From NCBI GenBank assembly GCA_044868695.1, contig JBIOWP010000084.1, forward strand, positions 11,659 through 75,658: 64,000 bases of DNA. Direction: 5' to 3'. The notes beneath the pieces were generated by a model, which saw only the letters and a list, made by a program, of their open reading frames with translations, did no database searches and was not told the DNA's origin. Of the stretch, positions 7,297 to 54,314 are shown piece by piece. The DNA is from a bacterium (GTDB lineage: Bacteria > Sysuimicrobiota > Sysuimicrobiia > Sysuimicrobiales > Kaftiobacteriaceae). Numbering within the stretch: position 1 is the first letter of the stretch; each line of letters starts with the position of its first letter. Made by a program: the position numbers and the translations under genes.

Positions 7297-8531
7297 GCCC
7301 GCAGCAGATGGAGGCGCAACAGGTTGAGCGCCGCCTGTGAGGCCAGAAAGCGAATGCCTTCTCGGCCGGCTTCAGACCCCAACAGCAGCCGCCGGTGCGT
7401 CGGTCCTGCGGCACCGGCGAGAGCCAGGAAGACCAGGCCGACCGGTTTTTCGGGCGTCCCCCCGGTAGGACCGGCGATACCGGTGACGGCCAGGCCGAGG
7501 GCCGCACCCGCGCGCCGGCGAATGCCGGCCGCCATGCCCTCCGCGACCTCTGCGCTCACGGCGCCGTGCGCATCGAGGAGTGCTGGATCGACGCCCGCAT
7601 CTCTAATTTTCGCCTCGTTGCTGTAAGCCGCGACGCCCTCGAGGAAATACGTCGAGCTGCCCGGGACGGCCGTCAGGCGGTGGCTGATCTGCCCGCCGGT
7701 GCATGACTCGGCGACCGCAACCGTCAGGCGGCGCGCGGTCAGCGCGGCGGCCACCACGTCTTCCAGCGTCTGGCCGTCGACGCCGTACACGAGGTCGCCG
7801 AGCCGCTCGCGCACAAGGGCTTCGCCTCGATCCAACGTGGCGGCCACGGCGTCGGGGGCTCCCTTTGCGGTGAGTCGCAGGTGCACCTCGCCGAGCTTCG
7901 CGTAGGGCGCGATGGTGGGCTCCGTCAGCTGAAGGAGGTCCTTGATGCGGACCTCGATGGCCGACTCCCCCTCCCCCGTGACACGCAGCACGCGGGATTG
8001 GATGACGGCCGCCCCCGCCCGATCGCGCAGGGCCGGGAGCACGTACCCGTCCATCATGCCCTTCATCTCGTAGGGCACGCCCGGCATCAGGAACAGCGAA
8101 CGGCCGCGGTGCTCGATGTGGACCCCCGGCGCCGTCCCGCGGGTATTGGCGATGATGCGTGCGCCGCGCGGCACCAGCGCCTGCTTGAACACGGTATCCG
8201 ACGGTGTCCGCCCGCGGGCGTCGAAGAACCGGCGGATGTGGTCAGCGGCGCTCTCGTCCGCCACCAGGGGAAGTCCCAGCGTCGTGGCGACCGTCGCCAC
8301 CGTCAGGTCGTCTTCGGTGGGTCCCAGCCCCCCGGTCATCAGCACGACATCGGCGCGTGATAGGGCCAGGCGCGTTGCCTCTTCGATCCGCGTCGGATTG
8401 TCTCCGACGGTCTGCTTGAAGTAGACATCGACGCCGATCTCGGCCAGCCGCTGGGCGAGGTAGGCGGCGTTGGTGTCGACGATCTGACCCAGAAGGAGTT
8501 CCGTACCGACCGAAATGATCTCTGCGCGCAT
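7293..8531 (-). CDS. cinA: competence/damage-inducible protein CinA (MoCF-like domain plus PncC-type NMN deamidase domain)
   Basis: The ORF track extends it to 8732. The conserved N-terminus MRAEIISVGTELLLGQIVDTNAAYLA starts at 8531, giving 412 aa. Confidence 0.85.
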   Translation of the reverse strand: MRAEIISVGTELLLGQIVDTNAAYLAQRLAEIGVDVYFKQTVGDNPTRIEEATRLALSRADVVLMTGGLGPTEDDLTVATVATTLGLPLVADESAADHIRRFFDARGRTPSDTVFKQALVPRGARIIANTRGTAPGVHIEHRGRSLFLMPGVPYEMKGMMDGYVLPALRDRAGAAVIQSRVLRVTGEGESAIEVRIKDLLQLTEPTIAPYAKLGEVHLRLTAKGAPDAVAATLDRGEALVRERLGDLVYGVDGQTLEDVVAAALTARRLTVAVAESCTGGQISHRLTAVPGSSTYFLEGVAAYSNEAKIRDAGVDPALLDAHGAVSAEVAEGMAAGIRRRAGAALGLAVTGIAGPTGGTPEKPVGLVFLALAGAAGPTHRRLLLGSEAGREGIRFLASQAALNLLRLHLLRA

Positions 8532-8533
8532 GG

Positions 8534-23857: not shown

Positions 23858-23937
23858 TGGGGACCAGGGACCGGGGACCGGAGAAAGATGGAGTGCCGTT
23901 CGTCTAATCTGGTCCCTGGTCCCGGGTCCCTGGTCCC
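23858..23937. repeat. tandem-hexamer inverted-repeat hairpin element (GGGACC units), between dapB and the M16 peptidase
   Basis: Left arm tggggaccagggaccggggaccgg, 29-nt loop, right arm ggtccctggtcccgggtccctggtccc. The right arm encodes the last residues (GPGTRDQGPD) of the peptidase. Confidence 0.55.
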
Positions 23938-25253
23938 GCGGGTGTTTTCTGCGCCTTCTCTCCGACGTAGCGCTCGAAGGCTTTCCGCATGCCGGACCGC
24001 AGCGCTCCGTCGGAACGGAACGGGCCGATGGCCGCCATGGACAGCGCTCCGGGGCGGAAGAGGTCGTCGGCGGCGCGTTGCACATCGTCGGCGGTGACGG
24101 CATCGACTTTCGAGATCAACTCGTCGAGCGTGACGTGCCGGCCGTGGTAGATCTCCGATCTGGCCAGCATCGACATCCGGCTGCCGGTGCTCTCCAACCC
24201 CAGCATGAGGCCGCCCTTGAGCGACTCTTTGGCGCGGCGGAGCTCCGCGGCGTCCGGTGGGTGTGCTTTGACCTTCTCGATCTCGTCGATGACGAGGCGG
24301 ATGACCTCGGGGCCGGCATCGGGACTCATCCCGGCATAGATGACGAACAGGCCGCCGTCACGGTACGACGCCGCGTACGACGAGATGCTGTACACCAGCC
24401 CCCGCCGCTCTCGGATCTCCTGGAACAACCGTGAGCTCATGCCGCCGCCCAGCAGGTGGTCCAGGACGGACAGCGCGTAGCGCCGCGGATCCGCCTGGCT
24501 CAGTCCCTGCGTGCCCAGGCATAGGTGGACCTGTTCCGTTTCCTTCGTGCGGGTGGAGAGGCCGGCCTGCGGCTGCGGCGGCGCCTGCGGCACGACGGAC
24601 GCGGCCCCCGCCCACCCGCCGAAGTGAGCGGCGATGAGCGATTCGACCTGCGCGTGTTCCAGCTGCCCGGCCGCGGCAATCACCACGTTGGTAGGCCGGT
24701 AGAACCGCTCGATGTAGGAGAGGAAGTCATCGCGGGTCAGGGCGCCGACGGTCTGCAGGGTGCCGATCACCGGCCGGCCGAGCGGGTGCCTGTTCCACAC
24801 CGTCTGGGCGAGCAGGTCCTGGACCAGCTCATCCGGAGAGTCCTCATAGCTCTTGATCTCCTCGGTGATGACCTGCCGCTCGCGCTCGATGTGTTCCGGG
24901 GTCAGCGTGGAGTGGAGCAGCATGTCCGCGTAGATCTCCAGCGCACGGTCCAGGTGCGTGCTCAGCACCTTCAGATAGAAGACGGTCTGCTCACGATCGG
25001 TGAATGCGTTCATCTGGCCGCCGATGTCGTCGACGGCCTGCGCGATTTCCAGCGCCGACCGCGTCGCGGTGCCTTTGAAGAAGAGATGCTCGAGAAAGTG
25101 TGAGATGCCGTGGTGCTCAGACGGCTCGAAGCGCGAGCCGGCCCCCACCCAGATACCGACGGCGGTCGTGCGGACGTGCGGAATCTGCTCGGTGAGCACA
25201 CGGATGCCGCCCAGCAGCGTGCTCTTGGTGACCGTTCCCGGCGGCGGCTCCAT
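23904..25253 (-). CDS. M16-family zinc peptidase (pitrilysin-like; MlpA/YmxG position)
   Basis: 449 aa. HFLEHLFFKG inverted zincin motif. Downstream of pnp as in Bacillus. Confidence 0.8.
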   Translation of the reverse strand: MEPPPGTVTKSTLLGGIRVLTEQIPHVRTTAVGIWVGAGSRFEPSEHHGISHFLEHLFFKGTATRSALEIAQAVDDIGGQMNAFTDREQTVFYLKVLSTHLDRALEIYADMLLHSTLTPEHIERERQVITEEIKSYEDSPDELVQDLLAQTVWNRHPLGRPVIGTLQTVGALTRDDFLSYIERFYRPTNVVIAAAGQLEHAQVESLIAAHFGGWAGAASVVPQAPPQPQAGLSTRTKETEQVHLCLGTQGLSQADPRRYALSVLDHLLGGGMSSRLFQEIRERRGLVYSISSYAASYRDGGLFVIYAGMSPDAGPEVIRLVIDEIEKVKAHPPDAAELRRAKESLKGGLMLGLESTGSRMSMLARSEIYHGRHVTLDELISKVDAVTADDVQRAADDLFRPGALSMAAIGPFRSDGALRSGMRKAFERYVGEKAQKTPAGPGTRDQGPD

Positions 25254-27517: not shown

Positions 27518-27560
27518 GGAGCCCTCCTAGGGACGTACCTGCACAGACCTGACAGGTAAA

Positions 27561-27582
27561 TGGGAGCGGGTACCCCCGCTCC
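27561..27582 (-). terminator. rpsO-pnp intergenic stem-loop (rpsO attenuating terminator or pnp leader processing hairpin)
   Basis: Perfect 9-bp stem GGGAGCGGG / CCCGCTCCC with a 5-nt loop, between the rpsO stop and pnp start. The minus-strand RNA continues with AUUUACCUG. Confidence 0.4.
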
Positions 27583-27629
27583 CATCACCACACCGCACGC
27601 GCCAGACCAGCTGTCGAAGACGAACCGGG

Positions 27630-29029: not shown

Positions 29030-29956
29030 TCAATCACGCAGTACCTTGACCGGCTTCAGCATGCCTTCCTCAACCTTCGCAATGGCTACGAGGCCATGGT
29101 GGTCCCGCAGGCGCACCAGCTTCGCCCCGACCAGCCGCTGCCAGTGGGCGATGCGGAACAGCGGAATGGGTTGTCCGTGCACCACGGACTGCCGCTGCGG
29201 GGGCAGCAGGTCGACGGCCGGGAGTTCCGGCAGGGCGTCGTCCATCCCGAGGATCGCCTGCGCCAGCTCCCCCTGATCCGCGAGTGCGCGCAGCTCTTCC
29301 AGGGTGAAGGACGATGCCAGTTCGTATCGCCCGACCCTAGTGCGGACCATGAACGAGGCGTAGGCGCCGCAGCCCAGGACCTCGCCCAGGTCCGCGCACA
29401 GCCGCCTGATGTAGGTGCCTTTCGAGCAGGCAACATGCAGCACGGCGCGGGGTGGCGGCCCAGGACGAAACTCGCGGAGTTCCAACTGGTAGATGCGCAC
29501 CCGTCTGGGCGGCGCGTCCACGACCGCGCCTGAGCGGGCCAATTCGTACAGCCGCCGGCCGCCGACGTGGACCGCAGACGCCATCGGCGGGATCTGCTGG
29601 ATCTCACCTGTGAAACGGGGCAGCGCGCCGGCGACCTGCGGCGCGTCGAGCGTGTCCGCCGGTCCCTCCTGGATGGTGACCCCGTAGGCATCGCCGGTGT
29701 CGGTGGACCGTCCGAACGTGACCTCGACGCGATACTCCTTGTCGGCATCGGTCAGGAACTCGGCGATCCGGGTCGCGTGGTTCAGGGCCAGGACGAGGAC
29801 GCCGCTGGCGCCGGGATCGAGTGTGCCCGTATGCCCCACCCTCCGGGTCCGTGCAAGCAGGCGGACGGCATCGACCACATCGTGCGAGGTCATGCCGACC
29901 GGTTTGCACAGGTTGAGCACTCCGTCCGGCGACGGCGCGGATGGGACGGCGGGCAT
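29030..29956 (-). CDS. truB: tRNA pseudouridine(55) synthase
   Basis: The track ORF is over-extended to 30157. The conserved N-terminus MPAVPSAPSPDGVLNLCKPVGMTSHDVV starts at 29956, with the catalytic Asp in HTGTLDP. Confidence 0.9.
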   Translation of the reverse strand: MPAVPSAPSPDGVLNLCKPVGMTSHDVVDAVRLLARTRRVGHTGTLDPGASGVLVLALNHATRIAEFLTDADKEYRVEVTFGRSTDTGDAYGVTIQEGPADTLDAPQVAGALPRFTGEIQQIPPMASAVHVGGRRLYELARSGAVVDAPPRRVRIYQLELREFRPGPPPRAVLHVACSKGTYIRRLCADLGEVLGCGAYASFMVRTRVGRYELASSFTLEELRALADQGELAQAILGMDDALPELPAVDLLPPQRQSVVHGQPIPLFRIAHWQRLVGAKLVRLRDHHGLVAIAKVEEGMLKPVKVLRD

Positions 29957-29972
29957 GTGCACGGGCCGGGTG

Positions 29973-30040
29973 TCAGGGGTCGGAGGTCGGCAATGGCGCC
30001 GGGTCCGCTCTGACCCCAGACCCCCGACCCCCGATCCCCA
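29973..30040. repeat. tandem-heptamer inverted-repeat hairpin element (GGGGTCG units) inside the 3' end of nrnA
   Basis: Left arm ggggtcggaggtcgg, 20-nt loop, right arm tgaccccagacccccgacccccgatcccc. The right arm encodes the C-terminal tail of NrnA (GIGGRGSGVRADPAPLPTSDP). Confidence 0.5.
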
Positions 30041-31001
30041 TCTCCCGCAGTTCGTTCTCTGCTGCGGCCAGGGTCGTCGCGAGCACCTGGTCCAGCGGGC
30101 CGGCGCGGGTGAACCCAGCGGCGCCCTGGTGTCCTCCTCCGCCGAACGCCTCCGCAATCACGTTCGACCTGACACCGTCTCGCGACCGGATCCCCACCCG
30201 GATCCCCTGGGCGGTCTCCTCGAACAGCAGGGCCGCCCGGACGCCCCGGATCTGGCGAAGCATGCCGACGATGCCGGTCGTGTCTTCCGGCACCGCCCCG
30301 GCCTCCTGCAGCATCTGTGGCGTGACCACCGTCCACGCCATCTGTCCGTCCGCGGACAGCCTCAGGGATGCCAGGGCCATGCCCAGCAGGCGCAGGCCGC
30401 CCGGGCTGCGGGTTTCATAGACACGCTCCACGATCTCGGGGACCGACCCGCCCGCGTCCACGAGGTCGGCAGCCAACCGAAGGGACCTGGCTCCTGTGTT
30501 GGGATAGCGGAAGCTGCCGGTGTCGGTGACGATGGCGGTGAGCAGGCACTGTGCGATCTCGCGGTCGATCGCGACGCGCAGTGCCTGGATCACTTTGGTC
30601 ACCTGCTCGCCGACCGCAGCCGCGGTGGTGTCCCAATAGACGATGTGGCCGTAGCCGGCGTTGCTGACGTGGTGGTCGATATTGATCAGCGTGCCTGCGC
30701 GGGTGAGGGCCGGCGCGAACGTCCCGGCCCGGTCCGGGGTGCTGCACTCGACGGCGACGGCCGCGTCGGCGGGGTCGGCGGGCGGCGCGGTGAGAATGCG
30801 GTCGGCCCCCGGCAGAGTGAGGAACGCGTCAGGGACGCCGTCGGAACTTCCGACCTGCGCGCTGATCCGCAGACGCGCCAGCGCCAGCCGCAGCGCCAGC
30901 GCCGACCCCAGGCAGTCGCCGTCGGGCGCGACGTGGCAGGCGATGAGCACGTTACGGCTTTTTCGGAGTCTTGCCGCGATCTGGTGTGGAAGCTCGGTCA
31001 T
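29973..31001 (-). CDS. nrnA: DHH/DHHA1-family bifunctional oligoribonuclease / pAp phosphatase
   Basis: 342 aa. DHH motifs (HVAPDGD, DHH) and DHHA1 GGGH. Sits between rbfA and truB. Confidence 0.8.
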   Translation of the reverse strand: MTELPHQIAARLRKSRNVLIACHVAPDGDCLGSALALRLALARLRISAQVGSSDGVPDAFLTLPGADRILTAPPADPADAAVAVECSTPDRAGTFAPALTRAGTLINIDHHVSNAGYGHIVYWDTTAAAVGEQVTKVIQALRVAIDREIAQCLLTAIVTDTGSFRYPNTGARSLRLAADLVDAGGSVPEIVERVYETRSPGGLRLLGMALASLRLSADGQMAWTVVTPQMLQEAGAVPEDTTGIVGMLRQIRGVRAALLFEETAQGIRVGIRSRDGVRSNVIAEAFGGGGHQGAAGFTRAGPLDQVLATTLAAAENELREMGIGGRGSGVRADPAPLPTSDP

Positions 31002-31368: not shown

Positions 31369-31650
31369 TCACCGCAGCTCCATGTCGAAGTGGACGACCA
31401 CCATCTCGGTTTCCCGTTCCACTCGTGACATCACGCGGGACAGGATCTGGTTGGCGTGCCGCGCCTCGCTGCTGACGCAGGTCACAGCCAGGTGGGCATG
31501 ACGGTGGTTGTCCTGCGCGTCGACCTCGGCCGCGGCGATGTTGAATTCGTTGTGCAGCCGGTCCAACAGGCTCTTCACCAGCCGCCGCTTGTCTTTCAGG
31601 CTCTGGCTGGCCGGCAAACTCAGTTCCACCTGCAGGACGCCGATGACCAT
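31369..31650 (-). CDS. ylxP: DUF503 protein (YlxP-like)
   Basis: Conserved start MVIGVLQVELSLPASQSLKDKRR. Occupies the Bacillus ylxP position between infB and rbfA. Confidence 0.7.
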   Translation of the reverse strand: MVIGVLQVELSLPASQSLKDKRRLVKSLLDRLHNEFNIAAAEVDAQDNHRHAHLAVTCVSSEARHANQILSRVMSRVERETEMVVVHFDMELR

Positions 31651-31663
31651 GACCGCGACTACA

Positions 31664-31750
31664 GGGAACAAGGGATCGAGGGAACGAGGGAACACGGGAC
31701 CGCCCGACGTGGCTTCCTTGGTTCCCTCGTTCCCTGGTTCCCTCGTTTCC
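31664..31750. repeat. tandem-hexamer inverted-repeat hairpin element (GGGAAC units) in the infB-ylxP intergenic space
   Basis: Left arm gggaacaagggatcgagggaacgagggaacacggg, 15-nt loop, right arm ttccttggttccctcgttccctggttccctcgtttcc. Confidence 0.55.
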
Positions 31751-31754
31751 TGAC

Positions 31755-34214
<2,460 letters not shown>

Positions 34215-34577: not shown

Positions 34578-36033
34578 CCGCCTGTGCGGTCTTCTTGCTC
34601 CGCCGCTTCGGCTTTGCCGGCACGGTCCCCTCCGAGCTTTCGGCAGTCCCCAGCGCCTCGGTCGGCGCCGGGTCCGCCACGGCGGGCGCTGCCGAGGGCT
34701 CTGCGTGCTCCACCGCAGGCTCCGCAGTCTCTGCGGGGACATCCGCGGAAGGCGGCGCAGCAGTGGAAAGATCGGCAGCCGGGGTCTCTTCCGCGGCCGC
34801 GCCGGCGGGAGCCGACCCATCGCCGAATGCGGTCTCGGCCTCGGCCGCCGCGGCAACCGGCGCGCCCTCCGCGGGGACGCCCTCCGCGGGCACGCTCTCC
34901 GCAGGCACGCTCTCCGCCGGGACGCCTTCTGCGGGGACGGGAGCCTCCTCTTCAGGCAGGTCCACGAACAGCTTCTTGGCCTCGATCTCCTTGATCTGCG
35001 TTTCGCTCTTGATGTCGATCCGCCAGCCGGTCAGCTTCGCAGCCAGGCGCGCGTTCTGCCCCTCGCGGCCGATCGCCAGCGACAACTGGTTGTCCGGCAC
35101 GATGACCAGCGCGGTCTTCGTCTCCTCATGAATCTCCACCCGCGTCACTTTGGCGGGGCTGAGTGCGCCGGCGACGAAGAGCGCCTGGTCGATGTTCCAC
35201 GGCACGATGTCAATCTTCTCGCCCTTCAACTCATCCACGATGGACTGCACGCGGGTGCCTTTGGGCCCCACGCAGGCGCCGACGGCATCCACGTTCTTGT
35301 CCCGGGACGACACGGCGATCTTGCTGCGGGCGCCGGCTTCGCGCGCGATGGCTTTGATCTCCACGATGCCCTCGTAAATCTCCGGGACCTCCAGTTCGAA
35401 CAACCGCTTCAACAGGCCCGGGTGGGTGCGTGAGACGACGATCTGCGGACCGCGCGTGCCCTGGCGCACTTCCACCACGTAGGCTTTGATCCGTTCGCTC
35501 TGGCGGTAACTTTCCCGCGGGATCTGCTCCGTCGGAGGCAGGACGGCCTCGATCCGGCCCAGATCGAGATAGACGTTCTTCCGCTCGATCCGCTGGACCG
35601 TCCCGGTGACGATGTCGCCTTCGCGGTCGCGAAACTCCTTGTAGACCAGGTCGCGCTCCGCCTCGCGCAACCGCTGGACGACGACTTGTTTGGCGGTCTG
35701 CGCGGCGATCCGCCCGAAGTCGCGGGGCGTGACCTCGATCTCGACCATGTCCCCTACCTTGGCGGTCGGATCCCACTCCCGCGCCTCGTCGAGGGAGATC
35801 TGCGAGTGTTCATCCTCCACGGCCTCGACGATGGTCCGGATCTGGTAGGCCCGCATCTCGCCGGTCTCGCGGTCCACCTCGATGCGCATGTTCTGCGCCG
35901 AGGCGCCGTAGTTCTTCTTGTACGCGGACAGCAGCGCCGCCTCGATGGCCTCGATGATGACCTCTTTGCCGATGCCTTTTTCTTCCTCGATTTGCTCGAG
36001 GGCTTTCATCAGTTCGACGTTCATCCCGCCCAC
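34570..36033 (-). CDS. nusA: transcription termination/antitermination factor NusA
   Basis: 487 aa. NusA N-terminal domain, S1 and two KH domains, then an acidic Ala/Pro/Glu-rich tail with four VPAE(S/G) pentapeptide repeats. Confidence 0.9.
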
Positions 36034-40241: not shown

Positions 40242-41053
40242 TGGCGGCCCGGGTGCTCGTGCATGCCGTCCTGCTGGCCGGCGCCGCGGCGATGCTCCTG
40301 CCCTATTACCTGATGGTCGCAACGTCGCTCAAGCCGCTGGGGGAGGTGTTTACCGACCCGTTCACGTGGATCCCGTCCGCCATGGCATGGGAGAACTACG
40401 TTGACGCCTGGACCCACGCGCCGTTTGCCAGGTACTTCTTCAACAGCGCGGTCATCGCGACCGCGGAAACGCTCGGCGTGCTGGTGACCTCGGCGCTCGC
40501 AGCCTACGCCTTTTCCAGGATGCGGTTTGCCGGGCGGGAGCTGCTGTTTGTGCTCTTCTTGGGGACGTTGATGGTGCCGGGGGAGGTGCAGCTGGTGCCC
40601 AATTACATCACGATTACACGCCTGGGGTGGCTCAACACCTATGCCGCGCTGATCGTCCCCTGGCTGGCCAGCGTCTTCGGGATTTTCTTCCTCCGGCAGT
40701 CCTTTGCCACGATCCCCCAAGAGCTCCAGGACGCCGCCACCGTCGACGGCGCGTCGCACCTGACGTTCTTATGGCGTGTGGTGGCGCCGCTCAGCACGCC
40801 GGCGTTCATTACGGTGGCGCTGCTCACCTTTTTGGGATCGTGGAACGCCCTGACCTGGCCGCTGATCGTCACGAATACGCCGGAGATGCGCCCGATCATG
40901 GTCGGCCTCCTGTCGTTCTCCACGGAGTGGGGCACGCAGCCCAGGCTGCTGATGGCGGCCGCGACGTTTTCGACCGCGCCGGTCCTGCTGCTGTTTTTTG
41001 TGCTGCAGCGCTACTTCGTCGAGGGGATTGCCAGGTCGGGGCTCACGCGCTAG
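40241..41053 (+). CDS. carbohydrate ABC transporter permease (MalG/UgpE-like)
   Basis: 270 aa. Start overlaps the previous stop (ATGA). No ATPase gene in the operon, so it probably shares an MsmX-like ATPase. Confidence 0.85.
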   Translation: MAARVLVHAVLLAGAAAMLLPYYLMVATSLKPLGEVFTDPFTWIPSAMAWENYVDAWTHAPFARYFFNSAVIATAETLGVLVTSALAAYAFSRMRFAGRELLFVLFLGTLMVPGEVQLVPNYITITRLGWLNTYAALIVPWLASVFGIFFLRQSFATIPQELQDAATVDGASHLTFLWRVVAPLSTPAFITVALLTFLGSWNALTWPLIVTNTPEMRPIMVGLLSFSTEWGTQPRLLMAAATFSTAPVLLLFFVLQRYFVEGIARSGLTR

Positions 41054-41057
41054 CTGA

Positions 41058-41146
41058 GGGGGAACGCGGGAACGGGGGAACGCGGAAACACGATACGGTC
41101 CGACGTTAGCGCCGCGTTTCCTCGCTTCCACGTTTCCGTGTTTCCG
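41058..41146. repeat. tandem-hexamer inverted-repeat hairpin element (GGGAAC/GGAAAC units) between the convergent sugar permease and bcp
   Basis: Left arm gggggaacgcgggaacgggggaacgcggaaacacg, 20-nt loop, right arm cgcgtttcctcgcttccacgtttccgtgtttccg. The right arm encodes the Bcp C-terminal tail TETRKRGSEETRR. Confidence 0.55.
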
Positions 41147-41606
41147 TTAGTTGTTTCAGCGCCTCCAGCACTGCGGCGCTGTGGCCGCTGACCTGCACCT
41201 TCGGGAACACTTTCACGATCGTCCCGTGCTCGTCGATGATGAACGTCGTCCGCGCGACGCCCCAGTACGTCTTGCCCATCATGGATTTCTCCGCCCAGAC
41301 CCCGTACCGGTTCGCGACGGCATGATCCGTGTCGGCCAGCAATGGGTGAGGAATCCGCAGCTTCTCCTTCCACCTGGCGTGGGACTCCACCGTGTCGGTG
41401 CTCACGCCCAGGATCTCCGCGTGCAGGGTCGTATAGGCCGCGTAGTCGTCACGGAACGCGGTGGCCTCGATGGTTCAGCCGGCCGTGTCATCCCGGACGT
41501 AGAACCACAGCACGACCCTCCTGCCGCGAAAATCCGAGAGTGCCACCCGCCGGCCGTGATCGTCCGTCAGCGTGAACTGCGGAGCCGTTTCGCCTTCTGC
41601 AACCAC
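41106..41606 (-). CDS. Bcp/PrxQ-type peroxiredoxin with in-frame TGA (41475..41477) at the peroxidatic-Cys codon; candidate selenoprotein (PrxU-like), alternatively a nonsense pseudogene
   Basis: Two track ORFs (41475..41723 and 41106..41405) are in the same frame, separated only by the TGA. Joined product: [58 protein letters not shown]...GVSTDTVESHARW...YGVW..MGKTYWGVARTTFIIDEHGTIV. It aligns to E. coli Bcp FYPKAMTPGCTVQACGLRD with the TGA at the Cp position. GTG start at 41606 is preceded by AGGAGGAG. A GC-rich hairpin begins about 10 nt 3' of the UGA. Confidence 0.6.
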
Positions 41607-41674
41607 TGGAGTCTCCTCCTGCGCGCCACGTGCGCGCACGAAGACATTAGACCCGGTCCGGCGAACTCCCTGTC

Positions 41675-42352
41675 GTGATGCGGCCGGACGAAGTCGCGCT
41701 GATCTTTGATCTCGACAACACACTGCTCATGTCCAACATCGACTTCCTGGCGGTGCGCCACCGCCTGATCGATCTCCTCGAGCATGCGGGGGCGGCCGGG
41801 CCGCCCCGCGACGCGCTGGTGCCCCTCGCACTGCCGGAGCTGGTGGCCCTGGGCGCCGCCGCCAGCGCGTCCCTGGCCGACGCGATGTGGGAGGTCATCC
41901 GGCAGGCGGAGCTTGCCGGCCTGGCCGGCGCGACGCTGGACGCGGCGGCCCCCGTCGTGCTTGAGGCGTTCCGCGCCCGCGGGTTCCAGCTCGCGATGCT
42001 GACCAACAACGCCAGCGAGATGCTGGCGGAGGTGCTTGCCACCTTCGGCCTGGCCCAGTACTTTCGTGTGATGGCCGCCCGCGACACCGTGCCGGCGCTC
42101 AAGCCCGCGCCCGACGGGATCCGCCACGTGCTGGCGCAGCTGGCGGGCATCCGCCGCGCCTACATGATCGGCGACGCCTGGATTGACGCGGGCGCCGCAC
42201 ACGCCGCCGGCGTGAGATTCATCGGCGTCGGTCCCAGGCGGGATACCGTGGAAGCGCGGGGGATTCCAATCTGGGCGTGGGCGGACGATCTGTCGGCGCT
42301 GCTGACGCTGGACCTTGTGGGGAAGGCGCGCGACAGGGAGTCGGAGAGTTGA
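41675..42352 (+). CDS. HAD-superfamily hydrolase (phosphoglycolate-phosphatase-like)
   Basis: 225 aa. Motif I IFDLDNTL, motif III K, motif IV GDAWIDAGAA. Confidence 0.8.
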   Translation: MMRPDEVALIFDLDNTLLMSNIDFLAVRHRLIDLLEHAGAAGPPRDALVPLALPELVALGAAASASLADAMWEVIRQAELAGLAGATLDAAAPVVLEAFRARGFQLAMLTNNASEMLAEVLATFGLAQYFRVMAARDTVPALKPAPDGIRHVLAQLAGIRRAYMIGDAWIDAGAAHAAGVRFIGVGPRRDTVEARGIPIWAWADDLSALLTLDLVGKARDRESES

Positions 42353-42421
42353 AGAGTTGGAAAGTTGAAGAGTCAACCAAAAATTCTCGACTGACGTTCC
42401 AACTCTCCAACTTTTCAACTG
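42344..42421. repeat. tandem-heptamer inverted-repeat hairpin element (GAGTTGA units), AT-rich
   Basis: Left arm gagagttgaagagttggaaagttgaagagtc, 21-nt loop, right arm gttccaactctccaacttttcaactg. Lies between the convergent HAD hydrolase and the Cys-rich small gene. Confidence 0.55.
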
Positions 42422-42430
42422 CAGTTCGCG

Positions 42431-42829
42431 TTACCAGAGATGCTTGAACTTGGCCGCAAACCGCCGCTCCATCTCCTCTTGATGGAGCGCGTACACCGGG
42501 CATTCCCGGAGGCGGCAGATATGCAGCGCGGTATTGCAGTACGCCTCGGACAGCTCCCAGCACTTCTTGTTGACGAAGTACGCGGCGCACACCCCCTTCT
42601 TCGGGTGCAGCACCAGCTCGTCCAGCCCCCGGACCGGCTCGGGGACCGCCGGGGAAGCGTCACGCACCAGCCGCAGGATGGGCCGGTCGGCCGGCGCCGG
42701 CTCCCGCGAGGCGGGAGGCTTCGGCGGGACGGCGGGAGCGGGTGCCGACGTGAACGCCGCGAGCTCGGCCGAGGTGTCCTGGATGAACGCCCTAATGCCG
42801 CGCCGCAGTTCCTCGCGTTCTTTCCTCAT
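42431..42829 (-). CDS. hypothetical Cys-rich protein (C-terminal CX8CX7CX6CX4C cluster)
   Basis: 132 aa. The last gene of the ParA-like cluster; its 5' end overlaps the ParA stop. No family recognised. Confidence 0.45.
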   Translation of the reverse strand: MRKEREELRRGIRAFIQDTSAELAAFTSAPAPAVPPKPPASREPAPADRPILRLVRDASPAVPEPVRGLDELVLHPKKGVCAAYFVNKKCWELSEAYCNTALHICRLRECPVYALHQEEMERRFAAKFKHLW

Positions 42830-43619
42830 GGAGCTTCATGACCTCCTTGGCCAGTTCCATGTACTCCTGCGCGCCGCGCGACGACGAGTCGTGGACCAGC
42901 AGCGGCACGCCCACCATCGATGACTCCACCAGCTTGATGTTGAAGTGGATGCTGGTGGAGAAGACCTTATCCCCAAAGAAATCCTTGATGCCCTGCACAA
43001 TCTCCTTGCTGATATTGGTCCGGGAGTCGTACATCGTCGGCAGGACGCCCAGGATCTCGACCTGATGGCCAACCTCTTCACGCACCATCTTCAGTGTCCG
43101 CAGCAGCTGCCGCATCCCCAGCAGCGCGTAGTAGTGGGTCTGGATCGGGATGATGACGTCGTCGCTGGCGACCAGCGCGTTGAGGGTCAATAGCCCCAGG
43201 CTCGGCGGGGTATCTATAAAGATGTATGCGTACTCCGAGAGGACCGGTCCCATCCGCTTGCGCAGCGAGTTCTCCCGGCCGATCCGCGCCGCCAGTTCCA
43301 GCTCCGCGGCCGCCAGGTCGATGGACGACGGGGCCAGGAACAGATTGCTGACCGTGGTCGGGACAATGATCTGCGAGAGCGAGACGGACGCATCGTCCTG
43401 GTCTTCGCTCACCATCAGGTGGTACACCGTTCTGGTCAATCCCCCGGGATCGACGCCGAGGCTGACCGTCGCGTTGGCCTGGGGATCCAGATCGATCAGC
43501 AGGATCTTCCGGCCGCTGACGGCAAGACAGGCTGCAAGGTTGACCGCCGTCGTCGTCTTCGCGCAGCCACCCTTCTGGTTGACGAGCGCGATCACTCGGG
43601 CGGGTTGCGAGTGCGCCAC
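42792..43619 (-). CDS. ParA/MinD-family P-loop ATPase with atypical Walker A KGGCAKTT
   Basis: 275 aa. NQKGGCAKTT deviant Walker A (A in place of the second Gly), DLDPQAN, DTPP Walker B. No parB in the window. Confidence 0.8.
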   Translation of the reverse strand: MAHSQPARVIALVNQKGGCAKTTTAVNLAACLAVSGRKILLIDLDPQANATVSLGVDPGGLTRTVYHLMVSEDQDDASVSLSQIIVPTTVSNLFLAPSSIDLAAAELELAARIGRENSLRKRMGPVLSEYAYIFIDTPPSLGLLTLNALVASDDVIIPIQTHYYALLGMRQLLRTLKMVREEVGHQVEILGVLPTMYDSRTNISKEIVQGIKDFFGDKVFSTSIHFNIKLVESSMVGVPLLVHDSSSRGAQEYMELAKEVMKLHEERTRGTAARH

Positions 43620-43649
43620 ACGATCCTCCCGCGTACCGTGGTGCGGGGG

Positions 43650-44042
43650 TCAGCGATCCAGGAGCCAGGCCAGGCGCCGGTCGACGGCGTCCAGGACCGC
43701 GGCAACCGCGGCGTCCTCCAGCGGTCCGCCCCGGCCGAGCGCGCTCCCGACCAGGTGCTCCTGTCCCCGCGGCGTATCCACGACGACGTGCGTCACCACC
43801 GCGGGTCCGGCCCCTACGAGCTCACTGCTCGCTCGCTGGAGCACGAACGTTGTGTCCGGCGGCGCCACCTGGCGGACGGCTTGGACCGCGGCTTCCGCCG
43901 CGACCTGCACCCCGCCCGACTCTCCGGCCGGACGCTCGACCCGTGCGGTGAGCACGGTATCGTCGTGCAGCAAATTCACAGTGACCGCCACGCGTCCCGG
44001 CGTCCGTTCGACGCGAACCCCTGCCACCCGCAGCCGCGCCAT
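43650..44042 (-). CDS. hypothetical protein with an internal duplication of a ~60-aa domain
   Basis: Conserved-looking start MARLRVAGVRVERTPGRVAVTV. Two similar halves, each ending in an AAEAAVQAV / AAVAAVLDAV helix. First gene of the ParA-like cluster. Confidence 0.45.
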   Translation of the reverse strand: MARLRVAGVRVERTPGRVAVTVNLLHDDTVLTARVERPAGESGGVQVAAEAAVQAVRQVAPPDTTFVLQRASSELVGAGPAVVTHVVVDTPRGQEHLVGSALGRGGPLEDAAVAAVLDAVDRRLAWLLDR

Positions 44043-44201
44043 TCTCCCCCGCCCGCACAGAGTCAGCGGCACGTACCTGCGGGGGGCGGCAAGGCAGCGT
44101 GTCGTGCGCTATCCGCAAGCCTGTTCGACTCAGTTGAGAGGTTTTCCTCTATGAGACCAGAACTGCTACAAGTACCGCGTTCCAGGCGAGGTGGTTGACT
44201 G

Positions 44202-45335
44202 ATGCGGGTTACCGTGAGTGTGATCAAGGCGGACATCGGCGCTGTCGGCGGTCACACCGTTCCCAGCGCTGAAGTCCTCGGCGTGGTGCGCGACCGCGTC
44301 GCCCGCGAGCGCGGCCGGCTCCTCATCGACGCGTTCGTGTACCATACTGGCGATGACATCGCCATCCTCATGACCCACACGAAAGGCAGCGATCACCCAG
44401 CCGTCCATCAGCTGGCCTGGGACGCGTTCCGTGAAGCGACGGAGGTCGCCAAACGCCAGGGCCTGTACGGCGCGGGCCAGGACCTGTTGAAAGACGCGTT
44501 CTCGGGCAACGTCAAGGGATTGGGACCCGGCTCCGCTGAGATCGAGACTGAGGAGCGGCCCAACGAAGCGTTGATGATTCTCACCGCGGACAAGACGGAA
44601 CCCGGCGCGTTCAACCTGCCGCTGTATCTCGTCTTCGCCGATCCGATGTACTCGTCGGGGCTGCTGCTGTCGGAGTCCCTGCATGCCGGGTTTACTTTCC
44701 GCATCATGGACGTAGACTACACGGAAGGCGACCGGGTGATCACGCTGGAGGCTCCGGAGCGCCTCTACGACATCGCCGCGCTGCTGCGCGACACGCACCG
44801 GTATGTCGTGGAATCCATCTGGTCCCGGAAATACCCGAAGGAGCAGGCGGCTGCGGTCAGCACGTCCCGGCTGCGCAACATCGCGGGCAAGTACGTCGGC
44901 AAGGATGACCCGTGCGCGGTCGTACGGGTGCAGAAGATTTTCCCGGCGACGGAGGAATTCGGCCCCGCCTTTGCCCTGGGACAGTACGTGGCCGGCGATA
45001 CCCGCGGCAGCCACAACCTGCCGCTCATGCCGGTGCCGATGAACACCGCGGCATCGACGTTCTTCTGTTGCCCGATGGTCTGCGGCCTGGGATTCTCGAT
45101 GCACGAGGGGCGCCTCACCGAGCCCTCGGATCTGTTCGCCGATCCCTTCTGGAACGGGGTCCGAGACCACATCGCCCAGAAGGCGGTGGAAATGCGCAAG
45201 CAGGGTTTCTTTGGCCCGGCGATGCTGCCGATGTCGGAACTGGAATACGGCGGCATTGTGGCCCGCCTGCGCAGTCTGGAGCAGGAGTTCGTGATCAAGA
45301 AGGAAGCTGCCGGCGCGCCGGCGGGGTCGGACTAG
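44202..45335 (+). CDS. fbp: bifunctional fructose-1,6-bisphosphate aldolase/phosphatase (class V FBPase, archaeal type)
   Basis: 377 aa. N-terminus MRVTVSVIKADIGAVGGHTV is characteristic of FBP aldolase/phosphatase. Confidence 0.85.
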   Translation: MRVTVSVIKADIGAVGGHTVPSAEVLGVVRDRVARERGRLLIDAFVYHTGDDIAILMTHTKGSDHPAVHQLAWDAFREATEVAKRQGLYGAGQDLLKDAFSGNVKGLGPGSAEIETEERPNEALMILTADKTEPGAFNLPLYLVFADPMYSSGLLLSESLHAGFTFRIMDVDYTEGDRVITLEAPERLYDIAALLRDTHRYVVESIWSRKYPKEQAAAVSTSRLRNIAGKYVGKDDPCAVVRVQKIFPATEEFGPAFALGQYVAGDTRGSHNLPLMPVPMNTAASTFFCCPMVCGLGFSMHEGRLTEPSDLFADPFWNGVRDHIAQKAVEMRKQGFFGPAMLPMSELEYGGIVARLRSLEQEFVIKKEAAGAPAGSD

Positions 45336-45338
45336 CGA

Positions 45339-45360
45339 GAGTTGGAGAGTTGGAAAGGCC
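45339..45360. repeat. half-copy of the GAGTTGG repeat element (no inverted partner)
   Basis: gagagttggagagttggaaagg directly after the fbp stop. Related to the 42344..42421 element. Confidence 0.4.
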
Positions 45361-45361
45361 G

Positions 45362-45516
45362 TTAGTGGTTTTTCTCCCCGTCAGAACCCTTCTCTTCCTT
45401 CAGCACCGCGGTATCGAGGTAGCGGACCAGCGACGGTAGGTACTTCGGGATCAACGCGCCGACGACCACAAAAACCGCCAGGAGTCCAAGGAAGAGATAG
45501 ACGATGGCGAGTTCAT
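45362..45516 (-). CDS. small hypothetical membrane protein (51 aa), downstream of cca
   Basis: Minus-strand ORF MNELAIVYLFLGLLAVFVVVGALIPKYLPSLVRYLDTAVLKEEKGSDGEKNH with one TM helix and a GGGGTGA RBS-like upstream. Too short for the ORF track. May be spurious. Confidence 0.3.
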
Positions 45517-45526
45517 TCACGCCGTA

Positions 45527-46879
45527 TCACCCCGACGTTGACTTCCGCACCTGCCGGTTCGTTCCTTCCGCGGGAAACGCCGTGCGGATGAGAGCTACGG
45601 CCTCATCGCGCGTCCGGATCCGTCCCTCGAGCATGGCGTCCTCGATCGTCTCCAGGATGATCTTGAATTGAGGGCCGGGGCGGTACCCCAGGTCAATCAA
45701 GTCATCGCCGTTGATCAGGGGGCGTGGAGGCGGCGGCTCGATGGCTAGGCCCTGTAGCGCGTCCACCGCCCATTGATGCACGCTCAGGTCTCCATGGCTG
45801 GCCAGGCAGTCCGCGCGGTGCAGCTCCAGATGGTCGGCGGCGTCCGGTTGCAGCAGAAACCGCTTCGCCTTAGCGGGCCGCATCTTCGGCAGGTCTTTCA
45901 CCCGCAGATGGTTGGCGACCAGGTCGACGATCCGGTCGGTCTCCTCCCCCGAGAGGTGGAGGCGGCGGCAGACCGCTCCTGCCATCTCCGCCCCAACGGC
46001 GTCGTGTTCGTTGAAGCGGATCCGGTCCGTCCGTGACAACGTCGGGGGCTTGCCGATGTCGTGCAGCAAGGCGGCCATCGCGAGCGCCGGCGACGGGTCG
46101 CGCAGGTGTTCGACCGTCATGACGGTATGCGTGAAGACGTCGCCCTCGGGGTGAAATTCCGGCGGTTGCGGCACCCCGGCGGTCGCGGCGACTTCCGGGA
46201 GGATGATCCGGAGCAGGCCGGAGGCGTGGAGCGCCCTGAGGCCCCTCCCCCTTCCTGGGCAGGTCAGGAGGCGCAGGAGTTCGTCGCGGACGCGCTCTGC
46301 GCTGACCGCCGCGATGGCCGGGGCGTTTGCGGAGACGGCGCGGAGGGCCTCGGGATCGATCTCGAAGTCGAGCTCCGCCGCCAACCGGACCGCCCGCAGC
46401 ATCCGCAGCCGGTCTTCTGCAAATCGTTCGGTGGCCGTCCCAATGGTCCGGACGATCCGGGCGCGAATATCCGCTCTCCCGCCGACATAGTCGATCGTCT
46501 CACCCCGCACGGGATCGTGCAGCAGCCCGTTGATCGTAAAATCGCGTCGGGTGACGTCGGTCCGCGCGTCGACAAACTCCACCCGGCTGGGATGCCTGCC
46601 GTCCAGGTAGGGGCCTTCCGCCCGGAAGGTAGAGACATCGTAGCGATGCGAGTTGATCGTCACGACTACGACACCGAACTGGGCGCCGACTAGGATGGTC
46701 TGTTCAAACAGCGCGGCGACGTCGGACGGTCTGGCCTCGGTGGCGATATCGTAATCGTGCGGCTCCCGGCCCATCTCGAGGTCCCGGACGCATCCGCCTA
46801 CCCAGTACGCGGCAAACCCGGCGCCGCGCAGCCGGCGCACCACCTCCAGCGCGCCGTCGCGCAGGCTGAGCGCGCTCAC
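45527..46879 (-). CDS. cca: CCA tRNA nucleotidyltransferase with HD domain
   Basis: GTG at 46879 overlaps the ctpA stop (GTGA). PolyA-polymerase head domain (GGCVRD, DYD), HD domain HDIGK. The track ORF is over-extended to 47068. Confidence 0.85.
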   Translation of the reverse strand: MSALSLRDGALEVVRRLRGAGFAAYWVGGCVRDLEMGREPHDYDIATEARPSDVAALFEQTILVGAQFGVVVVTINSHRYDVSTFRAEGPYLDGRHPSRVEFVDARTDVTRRDFTINGLLHDPVRGETIDYVGGRADIRARIVRTIGTATERFAEDRLRMLRAVRLAAELDFEIDPEALRAVSANAPAIAAVSAERVRDELLRLLTCPGRGRGLRALHASGLLRIILPEVAATAGVPQPPEFHPEGDVFTHTVMTVEHLRDPSPALAMAALLHDIGKPPTLSRTDRIRFNEHDAVGAEMAGAVCRRLHLSGEETDRIVDLVANHLRVKDLPKMRPAKAKRFLLQPDAADHLELHRADCLASHGDLSVHQWAVDALQGLAIEPPPPRPLINGDDLIDLGYRPGPQFKIILETIEDAMLEGRIRTRDEAVALIRTAFPAEGTNRQVRKSTSG

Positions 46880-48207
46880 GGCCTGGTGCCGGTCCCGGCC
46901 GCCATGCGGGCCCTCAGCGCCGTGGTGGCTTCCAGCGCCTGCACGTCCGCCGCTCCCTGGATCTGCTCGTCGTCCATCGTGACGGGGACCTCCGGCTGCA
47001 GGCCCTGCCCGTCGATGGCCCGCCCGCGGCGTGTGAAGTAGCGGGCCGTGGTCAGCCGCAGTCCCCATCCTCCCCGCAGCGGGTAGATGGTCTGGACGGT
47101 GGCTTTGCCAAACGTGCGCCGTCCCACCAGCGGCGCGCCGGTATCCTGGAGGGCGCCGGCGACGATCTCCGAGGCGCTGGCCGTAAAGATGTTGGTGATC
47201 ACCACCACCGGCCCCGAGAAACGTCGCGCCTGCGGGATGATGGGGAGCGGGTTCAACGCTCCCCGCCGCTCTTCCATGGCGACGATGCCATCGGGCAGGA
47301 ACAGGCTGGCAATCGCGATCGCTTCGTCAAGGAGTCCCCCGCCGTTGTCCCGCAGGTCCAGCAACAGCGCCGCGGCCCCGGCGTCCGTCAGGCCGCCGAG
47401 CGCGCGGCGCACGTCGGTCGATGCCCCTTCGGAGAACTCCAGGAGCCGCAGGTACCCAATGCGCGGGTCCACCATTTTTGCGCGGACCGGGGTCTCGCGC
47501 GCCGCTTCGCGCGTCAGGGACAGGCGGACGACACCGCCGGCTGCCCTGCGGACGACGATCACCACTAGGCTGCCCGTGTCCCCGCGCAGGCGGTCCATCA
47601 CGTGATCGGGGGTGCTGCCCGTGGTGGGCCGGCCGTCGACTTCAACGATGACGTCCCCGGCCCGCAGACCTGCGCGGGCGGCAGGCCCCCTCGCCGTCAC
47701 GTCGGCAAGAATAATCTCGCCTCGCACCGCGTCGACCTGCGCGCCGATGCCGGTGTGTTCCCCGCGCAGTTCGCGATGATACCGGGTGAACTCGATCGGT
47801 GGAAACACCGCTCCCTGGAGGTCGCTTCCGGTGCGCACCATGCCCCGCAGCACGGATGCCATGATGCGGTCGGTATCGCGGGGTGCGGCGGCGAGCACCG
47901 CCTGGACGTAGGCGACCACGACGGCGAGGTCCCGGGCCTCCTGCCCGGTCACGACCGGCAGGGGCGGCGGATCTGCGACGCCCGAGGAGATCACGGCGAG
48001 ATGCGCGGACAGGACTGTCTGATGAAGGAGGGTTAGCAGGTCGGGTGGACGCAGCGCGTCGTCCCGGATGGCCTCGTAGATTTCCCTGATCAGTCCTTCG
48101 GCCAGATCGGGGGGAACATCCGCAGCCAGCGGACTCGGCCACCCTGCCGCGATCAGGACCGCGACCAGCAGGGCGACACGGCGGGACCGGCGATGTCCCG
48201 TTACCAC
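46876..48207 (-). CDS. ctpA: S41-family carboxyl-terminal processing protease with PDZ domain
   Basis: 443 aa. N-terminal TM/signal segment, PDZ domain, S41 catalytic region (GGG..GTASASEI). Confidence 0.85.
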   Translation of the reverse strand: MVTGHRRSRRVALLVAVLIAAGWPSPLAADVPPDLAEGLIREIYEAIRDDALRPPDLLTLLHQTVLSAHLAVISSGVADPPPLPVVTGQEARDLAVVVAYVQAVLAAAPRDTDRIMASVLRGMVRTGSDLQGAVFPPIEFTRYHRELRGEHTGIGAQVDAVRGEIILADVTARGPAARAGLRAGDVIVEVDGRPTTGSTPDHVMDRLRGDTGSLVVIVVRRAAGGVVRLSLTREAARETPVRAKMVDPRIGYLRLLEFSEGASTDVRRALGGLTDAGAAALLLDLRDNGGGLLDEAIAIASLFLPDGIVAMEERRGALNPLPIIPQARRFSGPVVVITNIFTASASEIVAGALQDTGAPLVGRRTFGKATVQTIYPLRGGWGLRLTTARYFTRRGRAIDGQGLQPEVPVTMDDEQIQGAADVQALEATTALRARMAAGTGTRP

Positions 48208-48228
48208 ACCTCTATTGTATCGGGTTGG

Positions 48229-49335: not shown

Positions 49336-49394
49336 ACAGGACCCCCTCGCTCGACCAAATCGCGTCCATGATAGCAACTGCGCGGATGCTATGT

Positions 49395-50738: not shown

Positions 50739-50968
50739 CTGTCTCCTCCCCCCGCCTCAGTCCCGGCGGCCATCCAGGCCGCCGCCTCGATGGTAGCATA
50801 CTCGAGCGGGGCCGGGCTGGAGCGGTCGCCCGCGGGTCGGGAGAGCGGAAAAGCCGCATCAGGACTGGGAAATCTTGAGGTCAGAGGTCGGCAGAAGCAG
50901 GAAAATCAGGCCTGGCGCGGAAATTCCGCATCCGAACGAAATTCGACGCTGCCTCAGGAGGGGTATCA

Positions 50969-51259: not shown

Positions 51260-51284
51260 CGGGTTGGCCTTCTTCCGATAGCGC

Positions 51285-54151: not shown

Positions 54152-54170
54152 GCGCGTCTCCGCCCGGACT

Positions 54171-54280: not shown

Positions 54281-54314
54281 GAATGGTACACGCGGTTGAC
54301 GTGGGGGTGTGACG

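Follow-up and report, generated by a model that had tools for sequence, protein, structure and literature searches.

We examined a 64-kb stretch of DNA (contig JBIOWP010000084.1, positions 11,659 to 75,658; hereafter the window) from an uncultured bacterium of the phylum Sysuimicrobiota, with respect to hairpin-forming long simple-sequence repeats, which are named tandem-repeat hairpins (TRHs) in this study. The arrays of these elements were shown to change by whole units, to turn over between close relatives, and to lie directly at stop codons or only a few nucleotides from them. With modest confidence, we regard the TRHs as simple-sequence-repeat hairpins that were grown by slippage at the 3′-end hairpin position of genes, the protein tails encoded by some of their arms being by-products of translational read-through. 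A mobile-element mechanism was not supported.

Detection of tandem-repeat hairpins

The initial annotation had listed three G-rich tandem-repeat hairpins in the window, all of which are present where it placed them (E1, E2, and E4 below), but it had understated their number. TRF and inverted-repeat scans revealed seven TRHs (E1, 23859–23937; E2, 29967–30039; E3, 31662–31752; E4, 41058–41147; E5, 42329–42430; E6, 55028–55109; and E7, 62457–62558) together with one decayed half-element. When each TRF array was used for a search for its reverse complement within 110 nt, the window gave these seven elements, the reversed-sequence control gave none, and 40 order-2 Markov simulations gave a mean of 0.23 and a maximum of 2. 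All seven displayed tandem periods of 7, 8, or 9 nt with 2–5.6 copies per arm by TRF, three to five copies of the 7–9-base unit being typical, and their arms were 76–95% complementary across spacers of 3–30 nt; in the three elements listed initially, the spacer was unique sequence of 20–30 nt. As RNA, each element was predicted to form one long hairpin, the free energies being −37 to −59 kcal/mol and the z scores −2.0 to −8.3 against dinucleotide shuffles. The unit types in the window, namely GGGACCR, GGGGTCG, AGGGAACG, GGAAACG, AGAGTTGA, and GATCTAYTG, did not conform to a single genome-wide consensus.

The window has a GC content of 67–69%, and the region of interest shows, on the minus strand, the Firmicute-like gene order infB, ylxP, rbfA, nrnA, truB, ribF, rpsO, pnp, M16 peptidase, dapB, and asd. 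Its nearest public genomes by PNPase and M16 peptidase are metagenome-assembled genomes (MAGs) labelled Armatimonadota or CSP1-3, a group now designated Candidatus Sysuimicrobiota. The possibility of an assembly artefact was ruled out, because identical elements were found in six independent assemblies (NCBI MAGs and Logan runs). A search of the window at the Rfam gathering thresholds gave no match at the elements and detected only 6S RNA (RF00013, 79 bits, full length), at 51320–51501 on the minus strand, in the gap that separates the HU gene from the neighbouring gene convergent with it. Two long stretches of the window (7297–8533 and 59697–60239) contained no open reading frame (ORF) passing the GC3-based gene filter.

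The placement of the elements relative to genes was uniform. In the window, each element touches or overlaps a stop codon or is no more than a few nucleotides away from one, and all 22 element instances in the window and its relatives lie after a stop codon in a co-directional or convergent context. Among window gaps of at least 25 nt, three to four of the five convergent ones were occupied, the fifth being that of the 6S RNA, as against none of the four divergent ones. The contrast with passive terminators drawn in the initial annotation finds no support in this distribution.

Change of the arrays among strains and relatives

At seven loci 99.6–100% identical to the window, E1, E3, E4, and E5 were essentially unchanged, and the sequence of E1 was also unaltered in strain L081 (99.65% identity). 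Over approximately 20 kb of the 99.6–100% identical strains, the single multi-base indel was an insertion of 8 nt at position 45336, corresponding to exactly one GAGAGTTG unit of the decayed half-element (45337–45360; two to three copies of GAGAGTTG, partner arm not intact), which is located in a convergent context at the FBPase 3′ end. This extra unit was found in L171 and L172 compared with the window, L170, and L173, and it segregates in otherwise 99.7–99.9% identical DNA. Between L082 and L083, which are 99.87% identical, 15 substitutions were counted in 11.3 kb, and three of them fell inside two TRHs that make up 1.9% of the length, converting one unit variant to another.

Comparable changes were observed among species. 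Orthologues of E4 with the same unit but different loops were present in L168 and L169, while the element was decayed in L167 and absent in L179. E5 was likewise kept with the same unit, in approximately 4 copies in the window, 4.5 in L168, and 2 in L167, and both E4 and E5 persisted across species of 83–90% protein identity with their loops diverged and their unit counts altered. Of the element at the FBPase end, both arms are present in L168 and one in the window, while L167 has none of it. At the M16–dapB junction, the hairpin of L177 (75% identity), CCGGGACGCCGGGAC...GGTCCCGGTC, contains the same CGGGAC...GTCCCG core as the GGGACC unit of the window, where four units occur per arm; two GGGAACGC-type units were found there in L085, and only GCGGGAC-TG-GTC was left in L082. 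The GGGAC core shared with a relative of 75% identity thus pointed to amplification in situ, and the strain, near-strain, and species comparisons as a whole pointed to hairpin stems being amplified, contracted, and deleted locally through the slippage of units. Turnover was also seen at the level of whole loci, in that L082 has neither E1 nor E2 and carries elements after ylxP, asd, and aspartokinase, and L085 carries one inside the ribF 3′ end.

The phylogenetic distribution was sharply delimited. The TRH-rich subclade contained 21 elements in approximately 135 kb, or about one per 6 kb, versus none in approximately 100 kb of more distant Sysuimicrobiota (71–79% marker identity; L176, L177/L178, L001–L004, L086/L087, and L179). 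In L177 (16653–21302) and L178 (16667–21302), both TRH-poor, CRISPR-Cas genes (Cas3, Cas_GSU0053) lie beside udg, at the place where the window lineage has bacA/ftsK. A PNPase-based metagenome set, which consists almost only of distant phyla (best match 69%), was used as background, and clear TRHs were rare in it, with one each in L023 (2920–3013), L121 (10671–10744), L135 (9854–9912), L152 (16774–16827), L160 (3230–3291), and L164 (12517–12595). In L023, a Chloroflexota MAG (DATLRG010000600.1), each arm comprises about six GAGTGAT units, and the stem, perfect over 36 nt, directly follows the pnp stop. The presence of clean TRHs in unrelated phyla indicated that the architecture is widely spread, albeit at low density, and is not confined to Sysuimicrobiota.

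Such an on/off pattern within the phylum also suits an account in which TRHs are mutational debris without function, short inverted repeats being inflated into tandem arrays by a replication or repair regime peculiar to the lineage and tolerated at gene 3′ ends. The decay states (the half-element at 45337, the Bcp element of L167, and the M16–dapB junction of L085), the raised substitution density inside elements, and the lack of any asymmetry in stability between sense and antisense RNA described below agree with it as well. Meanwhile, the stems of E4 and E5 have stayed long and well paired, with an unchanged unit, across 85–90% protein identity as their loops diverged, the arms remain complementary despite independent gain and loss of units, and convergent junctions show a strong enrichment of elements, divergent ones having none; nothing in this favours debris. 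We therefore consider this account a minor possibility, and not the one to be preferred.

C-terminal tails encoded by the repeat arms

It had been proposed in the initial annotation that the right arms of three elements supply the last residues of the M16 peptidase, NrnA, and Bcp. As all three genes are on the minus strand, this right arm is the mRNA 5′ arm, and it was confirmed to encode the tail in each case; the M16 tail, given as 10 residues, proved to be 15 residues long. The junction peptides are ...YVGEKAQKTPAGPGTR in the M16 peptidase, ...ELREMGIGGR in NrnA, and ...KQLTETR in Bcp. The tails were also held to be unlike the conserved termini of their families, and this was borne out: because the orthologues of all three proteins end just before the repeat-encoded residues, the tails are lineage-specific extensions. 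Among the orthologues compared, none of the relatives had the same tail without the repeats at the DNA level. The coding overlap of the arms is restricted to the last 3–22 codons and looks incidental.

The M16 peptidase gene (23904–25253, minus strand) encodes a protein that ends ...YVGEKA-QKTPAGPGTRDQGPD-stop. E1 lies on the minus strand between this gene and the co-directional dapB, and consists of the 7-nt unit GGGACCR in approximately 3.9 and 4.1 copies per arm around a 28-nt spacer (fold −48.8 kcal/mol, z = −3.9). Its mRNA 5′ arm (23909–23937) and part of the loop encode the last M16 residues, and the M16 stop TAG (23904–23906) is within the loop. More than 25 M16 orthologues of 58–85% identity were inspected; the close ones (66–85%) end ...FE(R/G)YV(E/G)A(K/N)A-stop or in a close variant, and none of the inspected orthologues carries the tail of the window, which was found only there and in one 99% strain. 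Directly after ...A(K/N)A, the stop codon is TAA in L082 and L085, TAG in L177, and TGA in L176, versus CAG in the window, so that the read-through extension (23904–23948, minus strand; 15 codons) starts with this codon in place of the ancestral stop. The hairpin begins approximately 12 nt past the ancestral stop position. These two features indicated that the M16 stop was lost and that translation reads into the hairpin downstream, and not, as initially suggested, that an element was inserted at or over the stop codon.

NrnA (29973–31001, minus strand) ends ...ELRE-MGIGGRGSGVRADPAPLPTSDP-stop. E2, located on the minus strand from nrnA to the co-directional truB, carries the 7-nt unit GGGGTCG in about two and about four copies and lies inside the last 22 nrnA codons (fold −56.6 kcal/mol, z = −4.4); the nrnA stop TGA is at 29973–29975, and the truB ATG at 29954–29956 is 16 nt downstream. 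Conservation of NrnA ends at ...AE(K/N)ELR(Q/E), followed by a short tail that is different in each lineage. Among the relatives, only L085 shares the G(I/A)GGRGSG-type tail (TGGAGRGSGAFPTADS), with a homologous G-rich/C-rich element and the stop elsewhere. In L082, which has no element at this locus, nrnA abuts truB.

Bcp ends ...ALKQL-TETRKRGSEETRR-stop, as compared with the usual orthologue ending ...VLAAL(R/K)xx-stop. E4 occupies a convergent junction between an ABC permease gene (plus strand, stop 41051–41053) and bcp (minus strand, stop 41106–41108), with GGGAACGC/GGAAACG units in approximately 3.8 and 3.9 copies and predicted folds of −36.7 kcal/mol for the minus and −46.5 kcal/mol for the plus strand, and its arm at 41109–41147 encodes the Bcp tail. 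The tail T(E/G)T(R/G)KRG(S/N)(E/G)ETR was found only in genomes with the GGAAACG repeat hairpin (the window, L168, and L169) and in degenerate form in L167, while Bcp of L179 ends RQMT-stop, followed by non-repetitive sequence.

Low-complexity tails also arise from tandem repeats by another route in this genome, as observed in NusA, where an in-frame 15-nt repeat in 5.1 copies (34863–34939, nusA 3′ region, minus strand) encodes (VPAE[G/S])5 within a long, acidic, Pro/Ala-rich C-terminal tail. One may accordingly ask whether the repeats are selected for the peptides that they encode, as new disordered C-terminal tails of the kind proposed for Borg tandem repeats. Three or four proteins have gained low-complexity tails, the Bcp tail is common to three species, and the NusA array is in frame. 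On the other side, three of the seven elements are entirely non-coding, the 7- and 8-nt units are not multiples of three, and the tails end at the first stop, the position of which differs in nrnA between the window and L085. Furthermore, where the Bcp tail varies from species to species, the changes are mostly non-synonymous (R/G, S/N, E/G) and follow the arm sequence, and the close relative L082 lacks E1 and E2. Selection for the encoded peptides is thus hardly credible.

Apart from its tail, the bcp/prxQ gene (41106–41660, minus strand) has an in-frame TGA (41475–41477) at the position of the peroxidatic Cys (FYVRDDTAG-TGA-TIEATAFRD). This TGA and a conserved hairpin approximately 16 nt downstream (CCGCGUUCCGUGACGACUACGCGG) are retained in five related genomes, in which gene callers give two fragments. 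From its sequence, Bcp looks like a candidate selenocysteine-containing protein with a bacterial SECIS element; tRNA-Sec or sel genes were not detected in the window.

Remaining elements and their G-tract content

E3 (minus strand) fills the spacer between infB (stop 31755–31757) and the co-directional ylxP/DUF503 gene (ATG 31648–31650) with the 8-nt unit AGGGAACG (fold −59.4 kcal/mol, z = −6.0). E5 has the 8-nt unit AGAGTTGA and lies between convergent genes for a HAD hydrolase (plus strand), whose stop at 42350–42352 is within the first unit, and a 132-aa protein (minus strand, stop 42431–42433), with a fold of −46.5 kcal/mol (z = −5.2). E6, composed of the 7-nt units GGAAACG/GGGAAGC, fills an 87-nt convergent gap between genes for an NTP-transferase (plus strand, stop 55020–55022) and an amidase (minus strand, stop 55110–55112), with a fold of −52.9 kcal/mol (z = −5.3). 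E7 (minus strand) is a near-perfect tandem-repeat palindrome centred on GGATCC, with the 9-nt unit GATCTAYTG and the pyrimidine-rich arm first. Taken from 62450 to 62558, it spans the whole 110-nt spacer from the TGA (62555–62557) of a helicase-C-domain gene to 8 nt short of the ATG (62442–62444) of the co-directional relA/spoT gene (fold −51.7 kcal/mol, z = −8.3).

The G-rich heptamers among these units raise the idea of G-quadruplex (G4) regulatory repeats, as proposed for the heptamers of Xanthomonas and Nostoc, with a G4 of the G-rich arm competing with the hairpin. The coding-strand arms of E1 (four GGG), E2 (four GGGG), and E3 (five GGG, plus strand) fit G3+N1-7 motifs, the G-rich arm comes first on both strands in most elements, and G4 formation in vitro is reported for oligonucleotides of the comparable repeats from Xanthomonas and Nostoc (PMC4692102). 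As a class, the TRHs nevertheless lack the four or more G3+ tracts required, which occur in E1–E3 on one strand only; E5 and E7 are without any G-tracts, E4 (minus strand) and E6 are marginal with at most three GGG runs, and the RGTCTWCYY family, which includes E7, has the pyrimidine-rich arm first. For these reasons, the property shared by the elements is tandem periodicity with arm complementarity rather than G4 potential, and G4 regulation appears very improbable as their explanation.

Proposed origin by slippage

In the slippage account, a stem-loop at the 3′ end of a gene would grow as each of its arms expands into an array of a 7–9-nt unit, and the arrays would gain or lose whole units by slipped-strand mispairing. 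Once transcribed, a TRH would fold into a near-perfect stem of approximately 20–35 paired positions directly after, or overlapping, the stop codon. Such a stem may serve as the 3′-end hairpin of the message, acting as a bidirectional terminator or exonuclease barrier at convergent genes; within operons, it may function in attenuation, in RNase III-type processing, or in stabilisation. The purine-rich arms are free of stop codons, and, where a native stop is mutated or overgrown, translation would run on along the arm until the first stop that it meets in the loop or the far arm. The account is favoured by the one-unit indel and the substitutions inside the TRHs of L082 and L083, the shared core and the lost stop at M16–dapB, the placement after stop codons, the strong predicted folds, the persistence of hairpins at infB–ylxP and at the sites of E4 and E5 while their sequences changed, and the Xanthomonas precedent described below.

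Several observations weigh against this account, and the first group of them concerns the supposed role, which is read from the position of the elements. E1, E2, E3, and E7 are inside apparent operons, where full termination would be harmful. No T-run (U-tract in the RNA) was found directly after any element of the window, and the TRHs, being hairpins that no U-tract follows, are therefore not canonical intrinsic terminators. A scan of 42001–62000 for hairpin-plus-T terminators gave eight sites versus 7.9 expected by chance, none of which was called at a TRH; as canonical U-tract terminators thus occur only at chance level in this region, the TRHs are the conspicuous 3′ structures of this genome, a point in favour of the account. 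The sense RNA was more stable than the antisense RNA in 9 of 15 co-directional elements, which is not significant, and strand asymmetry was accordingly dropped as a sign of RNA-level selection; such selection is not demonstrated by these folds, and a DNA-level role or no role is possible. Moreover, ordinary hairpins at the same junctions in TRH-poor relatives were able to fold, but with z scores of −1.8 to +0.5 they were no better than shuffles, and hence it is the sequence resemblance at M16–dapB by which the replacement of ordinary hairpins by TRHs is suggested. In the rpsO–pnp spacer (27518–27629, minus strand), a strong fold of −62.5 kcal/mol (z approximately −3) was found, consistent with the classical pnp leader hairpin, which is an RNase III target in E. 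coli.

The second group of observations concerns the units themselves. Unit pairs sharing a circular 6-mer or longer across loci numbered 15, versus 5.4 ± 2.3 in a composition-matched null (P approximately 0.001), a statistic that is somewhat inflated by the orthology of L167-1823 and L168-994. GGRAACG-type units were found in E3, E4, E6, L168-994, and L167-1823; GAGTTGRA units at two loci in both the window and L168; and RGTCTWCYY units, with the pyrimidine-rich arm first, in E7, L082-13165, L168-4910, and L169-2703/-4049. In addition, one unit is common to two neighbouring elements of L082, and an 18-nt super-unit is common to two elements of L169 that flank one gene. Pure growth in situ explains neither the presence of these families at unrelated loci nor the constancy of units at orthologous sites where the loops diverge, and the recurrence of unit families and the subclade-specific burst lie outside the slippage account. 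The recurrence could reflect copying between elements or a convergent bias toward G3-A2-Y-type units, and it leaves the description of the elements as recombinogenic in the initial annotation possible.

The same families are what would be expected of dispersed repeats spreading between gene ends, either by transposition in the manner of REPINs or transposable elements of the miniature inverted-repeat kind (MITEs) or by ectopic gene conversion or template switching, with ordinary 3′ hairpins being replaced and stops overwritten. As replacement predicts, the E3 unit at the infB–ylxP junction is unrelated to the 8-nt unit GTCGSGNN of the L082 hairpin there (z = −4.5); the corresponding gap of L085 is periodic by eye but failed the repeat scan (z = −0.7). 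The Bcp arm, too, starts exactly at the position of the stop codon of its relatives. Comparison of flanks and ends among the window elements nevertheless revealed no target-site duplications, no shared termini, and no shared loop or core, and the ends differ (e.g., CGCGGGACC, GTCAGGAAACG, GACAGGGAGTC, and GTGAATCTG) without a shared REP-type tag. A suspected paralogy of the E3 and E4 loops, based on a shared ACGTCGG 7-mer and 3/7 further matches, was not significant after correction for the loop pairs compared. Orthologous filled and unfilled sites differ by gradual change and not by the precise insertion of a MITE, and the core of E1 is the same as that of the ancestral local hairpin. Neither the 10 window proteins that were scanned against Pfam nor the genes called in syntenic relatives, which cover much of the window, included a transposase or a RAYT-like product. 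Furthermore, G3-A2-Y units occur in Xanthomonas (GGGAATC) and in the unrelated MAG L160 (GGGAACTG), suggesting convergent bias and not descent. We therefore judge dispersal to be unlikely. The miniature mobile elements that the initial annotation had in mind find no backing in these comparisons, nor in the GGGAC core shared with the 75% relative and the unit-sized 8-nt indel. An integron attC-like reading was also rejected, as the elements are flanked by core housekeeping genes whose synteny is conserved and no integrase was present.

A further, more speculative proposal is that of an active, lineage-restricted repeat system, in which a few unit families (GGRAACG, GAGTTGRA, RGTCTWCYY, and others) would be recognised or spread by a sequence-specific factor, or spread by template switching from one hairpin to another. 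It would progressively replace the ordinary 3′ hairpins of core genes and be maintained by the concerted evolution of the arms, with new C-terminal peptides as a side effect. We hold this proposal to be quite doubtful; if true, it would constitute a distinct route of bacterial 3′-UTR and protein-tail evolution. Growth by slippage at the hairpin position of gene 3′ ends, with the tails as read-through by-products, accounts for most of the observations and continues to be the reading that we adopt.

Comparison with known repeat systems

The closest counterparts of the TRHs are the GGGAATC arrays of Xanthomonas campestris and X. citri, of which there are approximately 185 per genome, mostly of four units (Rehm et al., 2015; PMC4692102). 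These arrays lie a mean of 28 nt after the upstream ORF, are mostly intergenic (with at least partial overlap of an ORF in 7–11%), and are seldom found between divergent ORFs; approximately 70–75 convergent array pairs per genome form inverted repeats, and the arrays, which are without known function, vary in length and sequence between close species (PMC4692102). The GGGGA(C/T)T repeats of Nostoc and the STRR heptamers of Calothrix are related to them. The over-representation of heptamer repeats has been attributed, as a proposal summarised in PMC4679880, to polymerase slippage. The TRHs resemble the Xanthomonas pairs in their tandem arrays of the 7-nt class, convergent inverted-repeat pairing, position after stop codons, depletion between divergent genes, and variation in unit number. 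Unlike the single consensus of Xanthomonas, they comprise at least six or seven coexisting unit types of 7, 8, and 9 nt, some of which are without G-tracts, and one family has the pyrimidine-rich arm first. They also differ in that nearly every array is paired into a hairpin, that they occur in the phylum Sysuimicrobiota and are switched on or off within it, and that they come with C-terminal extensions, which are not described for the Xanthomonas repeats. The paper describing the phylum makes no mention of repeats or terminators.

The REP, BIME, and REPIN sequences of Enterobacteria and Pseudomonas are abundant hairpin-forming elements located just after gene 3′ ends, also inside operons, and the TRHs are likewise hairpins just past gene 3′ ends, operons included. 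REPs, however, follow a family consensus that bears GTAG or CGTC as a tag, are mobilised by RAYT, and have arms that are not tandem, whereas no tag, consensus, or RAYT was seen with the TRHs. The roles proposed for these sequences are mRNA 3′-end stabilisation, termination, and effects on DNA structure (PMC3733652). With intrinsic and bidirectional terminators, the TRHs have in common the form of GC-rich stem-loops immediately 3′ of ORFs; where a terminator hairpin is symmetric, it can work both ways between convergent genes. This likeness comes from the sequence, and the TRHs differ from usual terminators in having no flanking U- or A-tract, much longer stems of approximately 20–35 paired positions, and internally repetitive arms. 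Their long, near-perfect stems are reminiscent of the intercistronic hairpins processed by RNase III, such as those of phage T7 early mRNA and the rpsO–pnp leader. Near-perfect stems of at least 20 bp are a substrate class of RNase III.

The translated arms further recall the Rickettsia palindromic elements (RPEs) and the Borg repeats, in which non-coding repeats are translated and add low-complexity segments to conserved proteins. RPEs represent a mobile consensus whose copies are inserted within genes in frame, unlike the TRHs at the last 3–22 codons, and the Borg repeats, again unlike the TRHs, form direct arrays that have no complementary partner arm. The Borg tandem repeats are described as arising locally with locus-specific units (PMC9879509).

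Implications

Hairpin-forming long simple-sequence repeats have so far been documented mainly as the single-unit family of Xanthomonas. In practical terms, gene callers will report the tails and extend ORFs over TRHs in genomes of the present kind. The loss of a stop codon beside a stop-free repeat arm represents a simple route to new low-complexity C-termini on housekeeping proteins. With a density of approximately one per 6 kb, several unit families, and gain, growth, decay, and loss among close relatives, the TRHs of this lineage offer a comparative system for the origin and turnover of bacterial 3′-end hairpins.

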